Positions 3,889 through 51,950 of a stretch of 64,000 nt of DNA are shown one piece after another. Source of the stretch: an uncultured Candidatus Saccharibacteria bacterium. Lineage in GTDB: Bacteria; Patescibacteriota; Minisyncoccia; Phycocordibacterales; PALSA-1337. The stretch lies in the NCBI GenBank assembly GCA_964600255.1, contig CAZRIX010000001.1:43948-107947 (forward strand). The letters run 5' to 3'. Positions within the stretch are counted from its first letter, which is position 1, and each line of letters starts with the position of its first letter. Both the position numbers and the translations under genes were made by a program. The notes below the pieces were generated by a model. It was not told where the DNA came from. It made no database searches and worked only from the letters and a program-made list of their open reading frames with translations.

Positions 3889-5382
3889 ATGTACTGGGCA
3901 AACTTTCTTCACATATATCAGCCAGCAAACCAGAGGAAGGATGTAATAGAAGCTGTTATTGCACAGTGTTACCGTCCACTACTTAAACATATACAAAAAT
4001 CCAAGCATGTAAGACTGACTTTGAATATAAATGCATCACTAGTTGAGCAATTCTACGAACATGGTCATCATGATCTCATCGAAATTCTAAAGGAAGTTGG
4101 ACTCGAAGGTAGAGTCGAGTTTACAAGTTCTGCAAAGTACCACGCATTTCTACCCCTGCTATCTGAAGATGAGATAGTACGTCAGATAAGGATGAATGAT
4201 GAGACAAACAAAAAGTATCTAGGTGACGCCTACAAGCCTGTAGGTTTCTTTTCACCTGAAATGGGATACTCTGAGAAACTACCGGCAATAATAGAAGCCT
4301 TGGGATACAAATGGATGATACTGGATGAAATCTCTGCATTCGGAGAGACTGAAAAGGTTGATCATGCAAAGATCTATAAAATAAAGAATACAAATGTTAA
4401 TGCTTTTTTCAGAGAAAGAAGAATAAGTAACTTAATAATGAGTGCCGTAGTTCGTTCTAGAGAGACACTTATAGAGGCAATGAAAGATGATTTGAAAACA
4501 AATAGGTACTTGATAACAGCGATGGATGGAGAGACATTCGGTCATCACAGGCCTGGCTTGGAGAAAATGCTATTTAAAGTATTTGATACACCAGAGTTCA
4601 ACTTGGTTACAATTTCAGATCTACAAAAACACTATCACGATATTGTAGAAATAGTTCCTGTAAAATCAACATGGGCAAGCAGTAAGCAAGATATTGATAG
4701 AGGTGTTCAGTTTCTATCATGGCATGACCCCTCAAACATCATCCATAGCTGGCAGTGGCAACTTATAAATCTAGTGGGGGCTCAGGTTAAAAAAGTTGAT
4801 ACGAAGGACCCAAAATACGAAGAAATCAGAAAGAAAATGGATCGTGCGCTAGCAAGCGATCATCTATGGTGGGCATCAGCGAAGCCTTGGTGGAGTGTTG
4901 AAATGATAGAGGATGGAGCGTTCAGATTGATAGAGACAATACGACTCATTCCAGGAGTAAGCGATACCGACCTAAGTGCTGCAAGTAAGCTATATGAGAA
5001 TATAGTATCGACCGCTTTTGATTGGCAGCGTTCAGGAAAAATATACCAGATGATGCAAGAACAGAATTCAATACTCAGAATTCCCTTCTTAGAAAGGACA
5101 GTTGGTAAAGGTGGTGCTGAGGTTGGTGTATATCATGCAATTATAAGTCTTATGAAAGGTCTCGAGGAGAAAGCAATAGAAAAGCGTGAATACGAGCAAG
5201 CAATACTTTGGAGAGATGCGATGTACAAACTAGAAAACAAGCTCGATATATACGATACAGTAAACGCAATTGACCTAATGAGAACCCATATTCCGAATGA
5301 TGAAGTTGAGAAGGTTATCGAAATGTACAAGGAAAAGTATAGAGAAATACGAGGTGGTCAAGTTGAACAAAGGGGATCATAA
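3889..5382 (+). CDS. GH57-family glycoside hydrolase (alpha-glucan branching enzyme or amylase type)
   Basis: N-terminal HIYQP motif. Downstream DGETFGHH catalytic region is typical of GH57. Confidence 0.7.
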   Translation: MYWANFLHIYQPANQRKDVIEAVIAQCYRPLLKHIQKSKHVRLTLNINASLVEQFYEHGHHDLIEILKEVGLEGRVEFTSSAKYHAFLPLLSEDEIVRQIRMNDETNKKYLGDAYKPVGFFSPEMGYSEKLPAIIEALGYKWMILDEISAFGETEKVDHAKIYKIKNTNVNAFFRERRISNLIMSAVVRSRETLIEAMKDDLKTNRYLITAMDGETFGHHRPGLEKMLFKVFDTPEFNLVTISDLQKHYHDIVEIVPVKSTWASSKQDIDRGVQFLSWHDPSNIIHSWQWQLINLVGAQVKKVDTKDPKYEEIRKKMDRALASDHLWWASAKPWWSVEMIEDGAFRLIETIRLIPGVSDTDLSAASKLYENIVSTAFDWQRSGKIYQMMQEQNSILRIPFLERTVGKGGAEVGVYHAIISLMKGLEEKAIEKREYEQAILWRDAMYKLENKLDIYDTVNAIDLMRTHIPNDEVEKVIEMYKEKYREIRGGQVEQRGS

Positions 5383-5421
5383 TACAATTATTTAATTTTA
5401 AATAAATTCACTCACAAGCAA

Positions 5422-7038
5422 ATGTGGTTAGACAAATTCAAGAAACCAGAAAACTATAAAGGATTTAGAAAGGAACCAGTAGCGTATTTTTGTGCTGAGT
5501 ATGCCCTCTTTGACCATACACCACTTTATGCAGGTGGACTTGGTATTCTAGCTGGAGACTATGTAAAAGAAATGGTAAAAGAAAACATGCCTGCCGTAGC
5601 GGTAGGCCTTTATTACCACAAAGAACATGAACACGGGCTTGATTTGAATAGAGAAAAAAAGACACCTACAGATCTGGGATTGAACTTAGTGAAAGATTCA
5701 AATGGGAATGTAGTCAAAATACCCATCCTACTCGGTGAAAGAACCGTCTATGTTCAAGTATGGAGCTGGAAAAAGAGTGAGTTGAACCTATACCTTCTGG
5801 ATACTCAAGTCGCTGAAAATAGTCCTATTGATTGGGATATTTGTGACTATCTATACGTGGAAGATAGAAATATCAGACTTAGACAAGAAATTATTCTAGG
5901 TATAGCCGGAGTTAGACTGCTTAAAGTTTTGGATATCAGACCATCAGTTTTTCATATGAATGAAGGTCATTCAGCTTTTCTAGCGTTTGAATTGATACGA
6001 CATGAGATGAAGAGTAGGAATATTGATTTCAAGACTGCGGTAAACTTTGCAAAACAGCGCATTGTTTTTACAAACCATACACTAGTTCCTGCTGGTCACG
6101 AATTGTTCAATATTGACACCATAAAAGATGTGGCGGCTGGATTTGCCAAAGATCTTGGGATTGATATAAACGAACTAGTTCAACTAGGATTCAATAGTGA
6201 GACAAATATGTTCTCTATGACGGAATTGGCTTTGACACTATCTACTAAGGTAAATGCAGTGAGTAAATTACATGCAGTTAAAGCGAAAGAAGTTTGGAAA
6301 TCTCATGAAGTGGAAGTAGTTACTAATGGTATATACGTAGATGATTGGGATCAATTGAAACACTATAGCCACAAGGAACTGAAGAGAAAACTGATAGATC
6401 ATGTTAATACAAATTGCGGAGTAAACTTCAGTGAAGATATATTAACACTTGGTTGGGCTAGGAGATTCGTCGATTACAAGAGACCTTTAGCGATTCTAGG
6501 AGACGTTGAGAGACTAAAGAAACTAGGGAAAGTTCAGATTGTATTTTCTAGTGCAATAAATTCTACATATTCCGAGGAGAATGAATACTATAAAGAACTT
6601 TTAAAGCTAAGCGAAAACGAACTTAAAGGTATGGTAGCTATTATTCCAGACTACGACATACATGTTGCAAAACTGATGACTTCTGGTTGTGACGTATGGC
6701 TCAATACTCCAATAGTTGGCCGCGAAGCTTGTGGTACAAGTGGAATGAAGGCCTGCCTAAATGGTGTACTACCCCTATCAACAAGTGATGGATGGGTTGA
6801 TGAAGTTGATCTAACTGATATTGGTTGGAAGGTAGAGGATGGAGAGATAACAAAAAACCTACTAGATGCATTAGAAAAAGAGGTTATACCTGAGTACTAT
6901 AACAATCAGGAAAGTTGGACAAGGAGAATGCGTAAGTCTAGAGAATTAATCGTGCGTGGCTTTGGAATGAATAGAGCCCTAAAGGAATATATCAACAATA
7001 TATACTTGCCAATATACAATACTAGGAAAAATAACTAG
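5422..7038 (+). CDS. glgP: Alpha-glucan (glycogen/maltodextrin) phosphorylase, GT35
   Basis: FCAEYALFDHTPLYAGGLGILAGD N-terminal signature. EACGTSGMKA pyridoxal-phosphate lysine motif. Confidence 0.8.
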   Translation: MWLDKFKKPENYKGFRKEPVAYFCAEYALFDHTPLYAGGLGILAGDYVKEMVKENMPAVAVGLYYHKEHEHGLDLNREKKTPTDLGLNLVKDSNGNVVKIPILLGERTVYVQVWSWKKSELNLYLLDTQVAENSPIDWDICDYLYVEDRNIRLRQEIILGIAGVRLLKVLDIRPSVFHMNEGHSAFLAFELIRHEMKSRNIDFKTAVNFAKQRIVFTNHTLVPAGHELFNIDTIKDVAAGFAKDLGIDINELVQLGFNSETNMFSMTELALTLSTKVNAVSKLHAVKAKEVWKSHEVEVVTNGIYVDDWDQLKHYSHKELKRKLIDHVNTNCGVNFSEDILTLGWARRFVDYKRPLAILGDVERLKKLGKVQIVFSSAINSTYSEENEYYKELLKLSENELKGMVAIIPDYDIHVAKLMTSGCDVWLNTPIVGREACGTSGMKACLNGVLPLSTSDGWVDEVDLTDIGWKVEDGEITKNLLDALEKEVIPEYYNNQESWTRRMRKSRELIVRGFGMNRALKEYINNIYLPIYNTRKNN

Positions 7039-28000: not shown

Positions 28001-28624
28001 TTATTTATCCAGAGATTCTACTGGTCGGAAACTGAAGTCTCGGATTATCCAATTTGCCCATTGTACATTATCTGGATATTTCTTACTCTTTATTAAATAG
28101 TGAATAATCAGTTTCTTCCCTACAGGATTTTCCACCAAAACATAATTGTACATGTCGTTATCTCTCAGAGCGTAACCTGTACCATTTTCTCCATTAAATT
28201 TATCTTCTAAGGTAAATGAATACGCGGGATTACCAGCAAAAGTTATTTGCTTCAAATCTCCAACCTTTGGATCATTACTTTTACTACTATCATCCAACTG
28301 CATGTTTCTAATACGTTGAGCATATTCTAAAAGTGGAGTTGTTGTTGGCTCATTAAGATCAACATTTATAGAGAAAATTTCACTTTCACCTGGAATTTCG
28401 AGATAAATATCTTTTTGAACCTCGAGAGAATTTCTGCCGTAATCATTGTCTGTACCCATTTTCATAAAAGATGGATAATCTAAAATGTATCTGTAAGTAT
28501 TGTTCATATACCTAAAAGAACTTTCTACCTTCCTCTTTTCTTTAGTGCTAGATAAATTTACCAGAGTCAAAACGACAGCTAGTAATATTAGTAATATAAA
28601 CAATAACGTTAAATTTTTCTTCAT
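28001..28624 (-). CDS. Hypothetical exported or lipo-protein
   Basis: N-terminal signal/TM segment LTLLFILLILLAVVLTLVNL. No recognisable motif. Confidence 0.4.
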   Translation of the reverse strand: MKKNLTLLFILLILLAVVLTLVNLSSTKEKRKVESSFRYMNNTYRYILDYPSFMKMGTDNDYGRNSLEVQKDIYLEIPGESEIFSINVDLNEPTTTPLLEYAQRIRNMQLDDSSKSNDPKVGDLKQITFAGNPAYSFTLEDKFNGENGTGYALRDNDMYNYVLVENPVGKKLIIHYLIKSKKYPDNVQWANWIIRDFSFRPVESLDK

Positions 28625-28670
28625 TATAATTAAATACTAGCACTAATTAAAAATTTAAGGAAGAATTAAA

Positions 28671-28760
28671 TTGACTTTGAGCATGACTCGGCTATAATTT
28701 GTACATTATACGGACATGGTCGCATCGAGATTCCCCGCCTTAAAGCGGGGTTTCGTTTTA
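28671..28760 (+). ncRNA. Candidate small RNA unit: promoter TTGACT-16-TATAAT plus ~55-nt transcript ending in an intrinsic terminator
   Basis: TTGACT at 28671-28676. TATAAT at 28693-28698. CCCCGCC-TTAAA-GCGGGG hairpin at 28733-28750 followed by TTTCGTTTT. No ORF between them. Confidence 0.35.
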
Positions 28761-29156
28761 TATAAAAGAGTTCATGCTTTTCTCCTTTATTAATTCAAAT
28801 TCTACTTCTCCAAGTCTCCTGATTAATCTAAGTAACCTGTTTGAGCTGTAAGATCTGATTTGATTCAATAATATGTAATTTAACTCCCCTTTATATAGTA
28901 TTGTGTATTTTAAATCTCTCTTATTTTTCTGTGATGTAATCGGTAAACCGATAAATGAATTTTCATTGAACTTCTTTAAAATTAAAACTGGTCTTTCAAA
29001 ATTATCATGTTTCCCATCAATCTCATTTCCGATATTTACTCCTGTTGATGTCCACCAAATTTCTCTATCCAAGAAAAAGAAAGAGTCTGGTAATACCCTC
29101 TTGTTTAGATCTTTTTTCTTATTGTTCCATTTATCATAATCCTTCTCATAACCCAT
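28758..29156 (-). CDS. PemK/MazF-family endoribonuclease toxin
   Basis: REIWW...ERPVLIL...FIGLPITS...LNQIRSY.. parallels Kid/MazF (GEIWLV, RPVLIV, LPVVPVTS, C-terminal RxxD). No antitoxin ORF adjacent. Confidence 0.65.
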   Translation of the reverse strand: MGYEKDYDKWNNKKKDLNKRVLPDSFFFLDREIWWTSTGVNIGNEIDGKHDNFERPVLILKKFNENSFIGLPITSQKNKRDLKYTILYKGELNYILLNQIRSYSSNRLLRLIRRLGEVEFELIKEKSMNSFI

Positions 29157-29306
29157 CCCTCAATTATGATAAATAGAAAAACTAAAACAATAGTAAAAAA
29201 TATAATAATTTTAACAATTTTTCATTCCGCGGGGATATGTTGGGGATAAGTAGAAAGACCGCTCAAGCTTTCGCTTGGCGGTCTGTTGTGTGGGTTTATG
29301 ACAACC

Positions 29307-29768
29307 CTATTTTCGCAATGTCGCGATAAGTGCAGATCGATCAATGAGCAAATCGAGCGCGTCTAAGATTGAAGTTGTAACGATGTCCGAATTTAAAAGC
29401 ACCTGTACATGTACACCCTCAGACTGAATCGTAACTATTCTGAGCTTGACCACCTTCATGAGCTCTAGATCTATCAAACCGTTGCCAATAGACACGCAAG
29501 TATCGGGATTGAGCTTTAACGCTTCATACCTTTTTGCGTCTCCATTTTCAGCCAAAATCCAATCAATACCCAATTCAGCAGCGATTTGATCTGCATTGTT
29601 GCGTGTATTGCCAGTAAAGAACAGGATATGATATCCAAGGTCCTTTAATCGTGTAAGGCGTTCCTTTACTCCTTCGGGGATTACTCCCATGACGGTTAAA
29701 GTGCCGTTAAGATCGAGAATGAGAGTTTTAAGCTCCAACTGACCGACACCGGGAATTTGGTATACCAT
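29307..29768 (-). CDS. Small HAD-superfamily hydrolase
   Basis: LILDLNGTL (DxD motif I). FFTGN motif II. GNGLID motif IV-like. ~153 aa. Confidence 0.5.
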   Translation of the reverse strand: MVYQIPGVGQLELKTLILDLNGTLTVMGVIPEGVKERLTRLKDLGYHILFFTGNTRNNADQIAAELGIDWILAENGDAKRYEALKLNPDTCVSIGNGLIDLELMKVVKLRIVTIQSEGVHVQVLLNSDIVTTSILDALDLLIDRSALIATLRK

Positions 29769-51795: not shown

Positions 51796-51950
51796 AAAAA
51801 GCCTGGCGACATCTACACTGATTAAAATATACACTATTGACATTTATTGGAAATAGTGTATATTTTAATTCTGTTTGGCAATAAAATACCGTGTGATCGA
51901 TTGCCACACAGGGATCCGAACGCTTCCGCGTCTCGGGTCTTCTTTATTTG

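Follow-up and report, generated by a model that had tools for sequence, protein, structure and literature searches.

A MazF/PemK-family toxin gene of Patescibacteria is coupled to a convergent small RNA gene that may encode its antitoxin

In a stretch of 64,000 nucleotides (nt) from an uncultured Candidatus Saccharibacteria bacterium (contig CAZRIX010000001.1), to which we refer in its full length as the window, we analyzed a predicted toxin gene of the MazF/PemK family together with its surroundings. A preliminary description of this DNA, which covered the interval 28758–29306, had regarded the gene as a solitary, orphan toxin or, as a fallback, as a toxin whose antitoxin is very small or not a protein, and had flagged the 150 nt upstream of it. 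The toxin gene converges with a small RNA (sRNA) gene on the opposite strand, and the two genes are composed as follows.

28758 to 29156, minus strand: toxin gene with ATG start, encoding a predicted PemK/MazF-family endoribonuclease of 132 amino acids (aa), assigned by Pfam, fold, and profile alignment.
28667 to 28768, plus strand: complete sRNA gene, spanning promoter to terminator tail and oriented convergently to the toxin gene (covariance model R1, 76.6 bits, E-value 4.7e-15).
28671 to 28676, plus strand: −35 box TTGACT, the best match of the promoter scan (11/12); the bases of TTGAC are each 89–99% conserved in 92 members.
28693 to 28698, plus strand: −10 box TATAAT after a 16-nt spacer, from the promoter scan; the T, A, and final T of TAnAnT are 97–99% conserved.
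28705 to 28759, plus strand: predicted sRNA transcript of ~55 nt, with its start placed ~7 nt past the −10 box (±2 nt) and its end within the U tract, from promoter and terminator geometry.
28713 to 28721, plus strand: P1, a small hairpin GAC-AUG-GUC (predicted fold).
28726 to 28755, plus strand: P2, an extended terminator hairpin (terminator scan and fold) consisting of CGAGA-UU, CCCCGC, the loop CUUAAA, GCGGGG, and UUUCG, which pairs back to CGAGA.
28756 to 28760, plus strand: U tail UUUUA, read from the sequence, which overlaps the toxin stop codon TAA (28758–28760, minus strand).

The 132-aa protein is a genuine member of the MazF/PemK family and has kept the catalytic arginine and threonine. 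Its sequence contains the motifs EIWW (residues 32–35), RPVLIL (55–60), and LPITS (71–75) as well as a basic C-terminal helix, and it matched the Pfam family PemK_toxin (PF02452) with 38.4 bits (cutoff 23.1; E-value 1.6e-9) over residues 32–126. This was the only Pfam match, and none of the PADLOC models matched the toxin. A search of the PDB with the single toxin sequence returned nothing meaningful, and a family profile was needed: the profile of 40 homologues led to the MazF proteins of Bacillus subtilis, Staphylococcus aureus, Mycobacterium tuberculosis, and Escherichia coli, and to Kid. An AlphaFold2 model of the toxin (predicted local distance difference test score 85.1; predicted template modeling score 0.81) was compared to the PDB using Foldseek, and all 50 matches listed were MazF-family toxins, with a probability of 1.00 and target-normalized template modeling scores of 0.61–0.78. 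The top matches were MazF or annotated homologues (the B. cereus mRNA interferase 7bxy, S. aureus MazF, and B. subtilis MazF).

The catalytic residues of the reference proteins are R25 and T48 in B. subtilis MazF and R29 and T52 in E. coli MazF. In the profile alignment with B. subtilis MazF (4mdx), R55-P56 of the toxin corresponds to R25-P26, T74 to T48, and Q99 to Q79, so that Q99 aligns with the substrate-contacting Gln of MazF. Inspection of the alignment of the 40 homologues indicated that R55-P56 is invariant and that position 74 is occupied by T or S in nearly all of them. The preliminary description had claimed a MazF/PemK toxin on the basis of the listed motifs, which is confirmed by the Pfam score, the MazF fold, and R55 and T74; its concern that the catalytic residues might be lacking is answered by the alignment of these two residues with R25 and T48. 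In addition, the toxin has an extra basic N-terminal helix (residues 7–19), which is specific for this family and confidently predicted in the AlphaFold2 model; W10 is invariant and K14 nearly invariant in this helix.

MazF proteins are textbook type II toxins, which are defined together with their protein partner MazE. All organism names that the sources gave for the 120 listed homologues belong to lineages of the Patescibacteria, or candidate phyla radiation (CPR), and 80 related genome loci were retrieved with a 12-sequence alignment from many CPR lineages, including Saccharibacteria, Nomurabacteria, Paceibacterota, Peregrinibacteria, Doudnabacteria, Uhrbacteria, and Moraniibacteriota. All-against-all BLAST and clustering of every open reading frame (ORF) within 1.5 kb of the toxin gene in 81 loci revealed no common neighbor gene. 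The largest cluster comprised 5 loci and represents local synteny; its product resembles the phenylalanyl-tRNA synthetase beta subunit as judged by eye, not by a search. Among the small upstream ORFs, the ten best were scanned against Pfam, which identified no antitoxin family, and neither a MazE/PemI-like gene nor a conserved micro-ORF was found beside the toxin in the window flanks or in the 81 related loci, which also settles the check for a small upstream MazE/PemI-like ORF that had been suggested in the preliminary description. In the related loci, large housekeeping-looking genes often end a few bases from the toxin start. One related locus (L058, 942–1196) contains an 84-aa ORF that resembles a RelE/ParE-type toxin upstream of a stop-interrupted toxin copy; this ORF is probably a remnant of a separate toxin–antitoxin system.

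When the flanks of the closest relatives were aligned, the ~100 nt past the toxin stop codon turned out to be more conserved than the gene itself, and a hairpin in this flank showed compensatory changes (CCCCGC/GCGGGG, CCUCCC/GGGAGG, and CCCGCC/GGCGGG). A profile of this downstream stretch matched the same position in many distant loci. Throughout the family, the layout consists of a promoter TTGAC(T)-17-TATA(C/A)T, followed ~12 nt on by P1, a UCCGAG linker, the GC-rich P2 with a base extended by GAGA/UUUC, and a U tail over the toxin stop codon. The 5' end of the transcript is predicted to be a short A/U-rich tail, and P1 of most relatives has a stem of 3–4 base pairs (bp) capped by UUCG, GUAA, or UUAG. 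Within the 64-kb window, the R1 hit at 28667–28768 was the sole significant match; a weak match to an AT-rich stretch at 51833–51886 on the plus strand (16 bits, E-value 0.49) is probably noise. The Rfam 15 covariance models, which include the pemK motif, gave no match over the element on either strand (E-values up to 10 for the window and up to 5 for ten representative loci), and searches of Rfam and of the full-text literature found no description of a pairing between a MazF toxin and a small RNA.

The mean pairwise nucleotide identity was 0.73 for the sRNA and 0.64 for the coding sequence of the toxin, and it was higher for the sRNA in 90% of the pairs. Across 92 copies, 91% of the alignment cells were paired as compared to 68% in shuffles, and changes on both sides of a pair numbered 198 as compared to 56, with none of 500 shuffles reaching the observed values. 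This signal collapsed when the pairing partners were slid out of register. As both the pairing and the two-sided changes go beyond what is found in shuffles, the RNA structure is under selection. In P2, which was 96% paired, compensatory changes occurred at all 7 pairs (92 sequences), and pairs of P1 also showed changes on both sides, for example the middle pair, which is GC in 49 and CG in 12 copies. A P1 hairpin of at least 3 bp was folded by 95% of 91 members, with a mean z of −2.85, and the bases of CCGAG were 85–95% conserved in the 92 members.

It was in principle possible that the conserved element acts on the toxin-sense strand, as part of a 3' untranslated region. Three features of the opposite strand speak against this, namely its conserved promoter, its U tail, and its UUCG loops: a U tail is present on the sRNA strand only and none on the toxin-sense strand, and 43 of the 92 copies have UUCG loops, closed mostly by C-G. 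An sRNA-encoded peptide was rejected as well, as the AUG before P1 is not conserved according to a reading of the alignment (the consensus is GUGGC), the frame over the conserved core differs among subtypes (GAG AUU CCC versus AGA UUC CCC), and changes in the stems keep pairing, not codons. The 'NETPP' tails of some homologues appear, judging from the sequence, to be the translated conserved AACGAAACCCC, which suggests that the constraint is on the nucleotides and not on the protein.

The toxin might also be solitary or controlled by a protein antitoxin that is encoded elsewhere, and the downstream element would then be a shared terminator combined with the promoter of an unrelated transcript. 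The genome data analyzed here comprise 64 kb, and genes elsewhere lie outside this scope; moreover, unrelated high-GC contigs contain part of the P2 motif behind a tRNA gene. In three such contigs that are not CPR-like (L100 ~6030–6150, L103 ~1250–1370, and L094 ~75–200), we observed the exact 24-nt P2 pattern CGAGATTCCCCGC...GCGGGGTTTCG without promoter, P1, or toxin, and in L100 and L103 it directly follows an apparent tRNA gene (tRNA-Asp with a GUC anticodon, by eye). By a rough estimate, ~0.05 matches to the P2 pattern would be expected by chance. However, a generic terminator would not be found as a fixed promoter-to-terminator unit with a conserved interior and covarying stems at 136 of 138 toxins in very divergent genomes and contexts, and the promoter drives only a stretch of ~55 nt that ends at the terminator. 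We therefore consider this explanation quite improbable.

The linkage of the two genes was strict. Each of the 83 protein-seeded sources had an R1 element, which without exception converged on the toxin 3' end, and in all fetched DNA it accompanied 136 of the 138 intact toxin ORFs; the other two have variant convergent genes with promoter, hairpins, and terminator. As an independent test, an RNA-only pattern was run over metagenome contigs, which gave 73 loci in which R1 confirmed 75 sRNA copies. Beside these copies, the toxin was intact in 50 cases, cut by the contig end in 2, disrupted in 4, absent in 17, and not assessable in 2. Some of the 17 toxin-less copies keep tiny remnants in which the N-terminal motif is fused to the C-terminus. 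Thus, about a quarter of the copies found by the RNA-only pattern were sRNA genes without an intact toxin, whereas no toxin without an RNA gene was found. The toxin-less sRNA genes have kept full-scoring promoters and folds (81–90 bits). Such a one-sided loss, in which the toxin is lost and the RNA is kept, is the pattern expected of an antitoxin. In two loci (L108 ~640–834 and L133 ~750–944), full-scoring sRNA genes lie beside toxin remnants such as 'MEKDFDTWNGKKK...' fused to the C-terminal tail, which indicates an internal deletion of the toxin core with retention of the RNA gene.

The view of a solitary toxin was thus not borne out, as a conserved sRNA gene is invariably coupled to the toxin. 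From the fallback of the preliminary description, the evidence favors the branch in which the antitoxin is not a protein, but the RNA lies downstream of the toxin: its gene is almost wholly outside the interval 28758–29306, at the end opposite to the flagged 150 nt.

Linkage and co-conservation only demonstrate a partnership and not the direction of the effect. The RNA could be a partner of another kind, as part of a ribonucleoprotein, as an RNA that is processed by the protein, or as an RNA that guides or regulates it, and the protein need not inhibit growth at all. The unique N-terminal helix and the confinement of the family to CPR bacteria, which have an unusual RNA biology, would be in line with this idea. 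It is disfavored by the conservation of the residues that are catalytic in active MazF, by the one-sided loss of the toxin, and by the genomic behavior of the modules, which are multi-copy and patchy, occur at unrelated insertion sites including an rRNA operon, and also exist as decayed copies, as is typical of selfish elements and not of housekeeping functions. In our view, a partnership without antitoxin function is unlikely.

Several individual loci illustrate this distribution. In L004 (1–1933), a module (toxin 1312–1707, sRNA 1698–1796) lies between a 16S rRNA gene (1–914) and a tRNA gene (1861–1933), that is, in the spacer of an rRNA operon. Two complete modules in a row are present in L006 (255–1372) and in L046 (2785–4122), two adjacent sRNA copies in L008 (3377–3568), and three sRNA copies with disrupted toxins in L135 (1664–2666). 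L082 has a second module at 5199–5691, 2 kb from the first, which is not found in the window, and the metagenome-assembled genome CAYRXD01 contains at least 4 module copies (L022, two in L046, and L059). The sRNA pattern had 0 matches in viral contigs, and the toxin protein had one viral-contig homologue, which is also accompanied by a convergent RNA gene; a phage origin of the module was rejected in view of the lack of viral-contig matches to the sRNA pattern and the single viral homologue.

The toxin ORF overlaps the RNA gene in 134 of 136 loci. Its stop codon lies within the complement of the U tail in 82 of the 136, and in 52 of them the ORF reads 20–100 nt into the sRNA complement. These 52 toxin ORFs, which have no stop codon before the sRNA complement, would end in tails such as 'NETPPDGGESR' (for example P0024, P0012, and P0111). 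Owing to the overlap, any toxin mRNA that reaches into the RNA gene is complementary to the sRNA. This raises the question of whether the RNA could be a type I-like antitoxin that pairs with the 3' end of the toxin mRNA, either with its 3' untranslated region or with the last codons, which would result in cleavage of the duplex, in decay, or in a non-stop message and thereby keep toxin synthesis low. The constant convergence of the RNA gene on the end of the toxin ORF and the extent of the overlap argue for such pairing, and as the toxin-sense strand has no U tail, transcription of the toxin gene would be expected to continue through the element, so that the mRNA contains the complete complement. 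There are precedents for this arrangement, as the 3' ends overlap in txpA/RatA and bsrG/SR4 of B. subtilis, and it is evident from SymE/SymR and RalR/RalA that the toxins of type I systems are not confined to small membrane peptides. However, a cis-antisense RNA is complementary by construction, which leaves the deep conservation of CCGAG/UUUCG and of the fold unexplained; loops of the UUCG or GNRA type are poor kissing partners; and sRNA genes have stayed intact at sites that have lost the toxin gene and thus the cis target. Nor was the pairing with the translation start cognate-specific (−16.0 versus −15.9 kcal/mol, p = 0.95). A purely type I-like mode of action is therefore possible but doubtful. 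An anti-Shine-Dalgarno function of the linker CCUCC, by pairing at the translation start, was rejected, as the clade of the window has CAUCGAG and cognate duplexes are no better than non-cognate ones.

The region upstream of the toxin gene contains two further features.

29256 to 29284, minus strand: hairpin with a GAAA loop and a stem of 12 pairs that is interrupted by one bulge (AGACCGC-CAAGC-GAAA-GCUUG-A-GCGGUCU), likely the terminator of the HAD hydrolase gene.
29157 to 29251, minus strand: presumed toxin promoter and short leader; conserved with the orthologous loci L081 and L082 from ACTTATCCCC to the ATG, and not with L001.

The preliminary description had placed a possible antitoxin here, as a micro-ORF or hairpin RNA within the upstream 150 nt (29157–29306). 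A strong hairpin is indeed present, and with its 12 pairs it is stronger than the 7-bp stem noted originally; the fold of this region has −39 kcal/mol and a z of −4.5. However, the hairpin is not part of the toxin system. It begins 22 nt past the stop codon of the HAD hydrolase gene (29307–29768) and is followed by UUUCUACUU. In L081 and L082, whose toxins have 92% and 70% protein identity, respectively, the toxin gene lies between an S1-domain-matching gene and a methyltransferase gene without the HAD gene, and the hairpin and all sequence upstream of ~29251 are replaced by other sequence. As the hairpin follows the HAD stop codon at 22 nt and is missing where the HAD gene is missing, it belongs to the HAD gene as its terminator and lies outside the toxin system. 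In comparison to L081 and L082, the HAD gene and a 207-aa ORF (28001–28624) are insertions that flank the toxin–sRNA module on both sides.

No credible gene was found in the gap 29157–29306. The claim that it has no ORF beyond a few codons holds insofar as no gene is plausible there, but mechanical ORFs of 26–40 aa do touch it: 29222–29344 on the minus strand (40 aa, with a TTG start within the HAD gene) and 29166–29249, 29237–29329, and 29286–29366 on the plus strand. These small ORFs cannot be conserved, because the sequence beyond ~29251 differs in L081 and L082. The remaining part, 29157–29251, read by eye, has a single 4-codon ATG frame, and this stretch lacks conservation in L001. Neither the region nor its surroundings contain tandem repeats, and no upstream element is common to the family. 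An upstream micro-ORF or hairpin was therefore rejected as the antitoxin, as the hairpin is linked to the HAD gene and absent in L081 and L082 and as upstream conservation is limited to the closest relatives; the chance that the antitoxin lies upstream is, in our estimation, minute.

The sigma-70 consensus scan of the toxin's strand gave no match at the presumed promoter. In the few printed toxin start regions, inspected by eye (such as L026, L027, and L047), many had no recognizable Shine-Dalgarno sequence, and the sRNA promoter is near the consensus. Weak expression of the toxin and strong expression of the RNA would fit this contrast, which is only an inference.

Considering these data together, we tentatively propose the following. 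The locus may be a two-gene toxin–antitoxin-like module of ~600 bp. Its first gene, on the minus strand, encodes a canonical protein of the MazF/PemK family, a predicted endoribonuclease that bears the additional basic helix at its N-terminus, and the second, convergent gene on the plus strand would use its own strong promoter to produce a ~55-nt RNA whose U tail ends on the toxin stop codon. This RNA is probably the antitoxin in place of MazE. In the mode that we consider the most likely one, the folded RNA would bind the RNA-binding surface of the toxin dimer as a pseudo-substrate or decoy, a type III-like function, possibly aided by antisense pairing with the 3' end of the toxin mRNA. Replacement of MazE by an RNA that acts through direct toxin binding is thus plausible, although we would not yet call it probable. 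What has been directly established is the anatomy of the RNA gene, its covariation, the strict linkage to the toxin, the lack of a protein antitoxin adjoining the toxin, and the one-sided loss.

We favor protein binding over a purely antisense mode because the CCGAG/UUUCG elements and the fold are conserved over very divergent lineages, which would be needless for a cis-antisense RNA, because the P1 caps are compact loops of the UUCG or GNRA type and not kissing loops, because toxin-less RNA genes have kept their promoters and folds, and because the toxin has a family-specific basic helix. ToxN, AbiQ, and CptN, which have a Kid/MazF-like fold and are inhibited by RNA, are a precedent. Transcription of the RNA, toxicity, neutralization, and the mode of binding are what we infer from these observations.

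Some points weigh against this proposal. The genes strictly converge and overlap (in 134 of 136 loci, by at least 20 nt in 52), which argues for an antisense component, because a pure protein binder would not need a convergent overlap. In the clade of the window, P1 is weak (−0.8 kcal/mol), and the linker is CAUCGAG instead of CUCCGAG. The numbers of G-U and A-C combinations in the stems (37 versus 42) do not discriminate between the strands. Given its presence in the three high-GC contigs, the P2 motif may in part be a terminator of wider occurrence, and a protein antitoxin encoded elsewhere in the genome is conceivable, as the negative result covers the toxin neighborhood and the 64-kb window.

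With the type II systems MazEF and PemIK (Kis-Kid, EndoA-EndoAI of B. subtilis, and MazEF of E. coli), the module shares the toxin family PF02452, the fold, the catalytic Arg and Thr, and the substrate-contacting Gln. It differs from them in that no co-directional mazE/pemI gene for an AbrB-type or ribbon-helix-helix antitoxin lies next to the toxin in the window or the 81 loci, that the toxin has the extra basic N-terminal helix, and that the partner is a convergent small RNA gene. Type III systems (ToxIN, AbiQ/antiQ, CptIN, and TenpIN) likewise combine an endoribonuclease toxin, an activity that is predicted here from family and fold, with a non-coding RNA gene. Toxins of the ToxN type resemble Kid and MazF in their fold, and RNA inhibits them by binding directly, the mode that we favor for the present module. 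Unlike in type III systems, the toxin is a canonical PemK/MazF protein that does not belong to the ToxN/AbiQ, CptN, or TenpN families (only PemK was matched in Pfam, and none of the PADLOC models); the RNA consists of one unit instead of an array of tandem direct repeats; and its gene is downstream and convergent with its own promoter, whereas the type III RNA lies upstream of the toxin gene, is transcribed together with it, and is separated from it by a terminator.

Type I systems with a convergent 3' overlap (txpA/RatA and bsrG/SR4) or with enzyme toxins (SymE/SymR and RalR/RalA) have the same convergent RNA gene overlapping the 3' end of the toxin. However, the toxin described here is a soluble 132-aa protein with an RNase fold and not a small (<60 aa) hydrophobic peptide, the RNA has ~55 nt and is conserved in sequence and fold over very divergent CPR lineages, and there is no cognate-specific pairing with the translation start. 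The pemK RNA motif of Rfam is located upstream of pemK genes in Firmicutes and was proposed to be cis-regulatory; the element described here had no covariance-model match to it and is located downstream on the opposite strand. At the E. coli mazEF locus, the antisense RNA aMEF stimulates mazEF expression in the presence of MazE, and its promoter is poorly conserved (PMC8749433). It is likewise an antisense transcript at a mazF locus (PMC8749433), whereas in our case no mazE gene adjoins the toxin, the promoter ranks with the best-conserved features, and a short terminated unit is predicted for the RNA. aMEF is the nearest item in the literature searched and is different in kind.

Based on sequence comparisons, the module is most likely an RNA-controlled type of toxin–antitoxin system that is built on a canonical MazF and widespread in CPR bacteria, a function that is predicted. 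More specifically, and as tentatively as the binding mode itself, a large clade of canonical MazF/PemK toxins across the Patescibacteria may have no protein antitoxin, each toxin being neutralized through binding by a single-copy, convergent RNA of ~55 nt. If true, this would be a new toxin–antitoxin architecture that combines a type II toxin with a type III-like control and a type I-like gene layout, and a MazF subfamily that always comes with a folded RNA would blur the classification into types I, II, and III. It would also explain reports of 'orphan toxins' by toxin–antitoxin finders, and it would provide a compact RNA–protein pair of ~600 bp for experimental testing. The genomes of CPR bacteria are small and poorly understood, and few regulatory RNAs are known in these organisms, to which the finding adds an uncatalogued, covariation-supported small RNA family.

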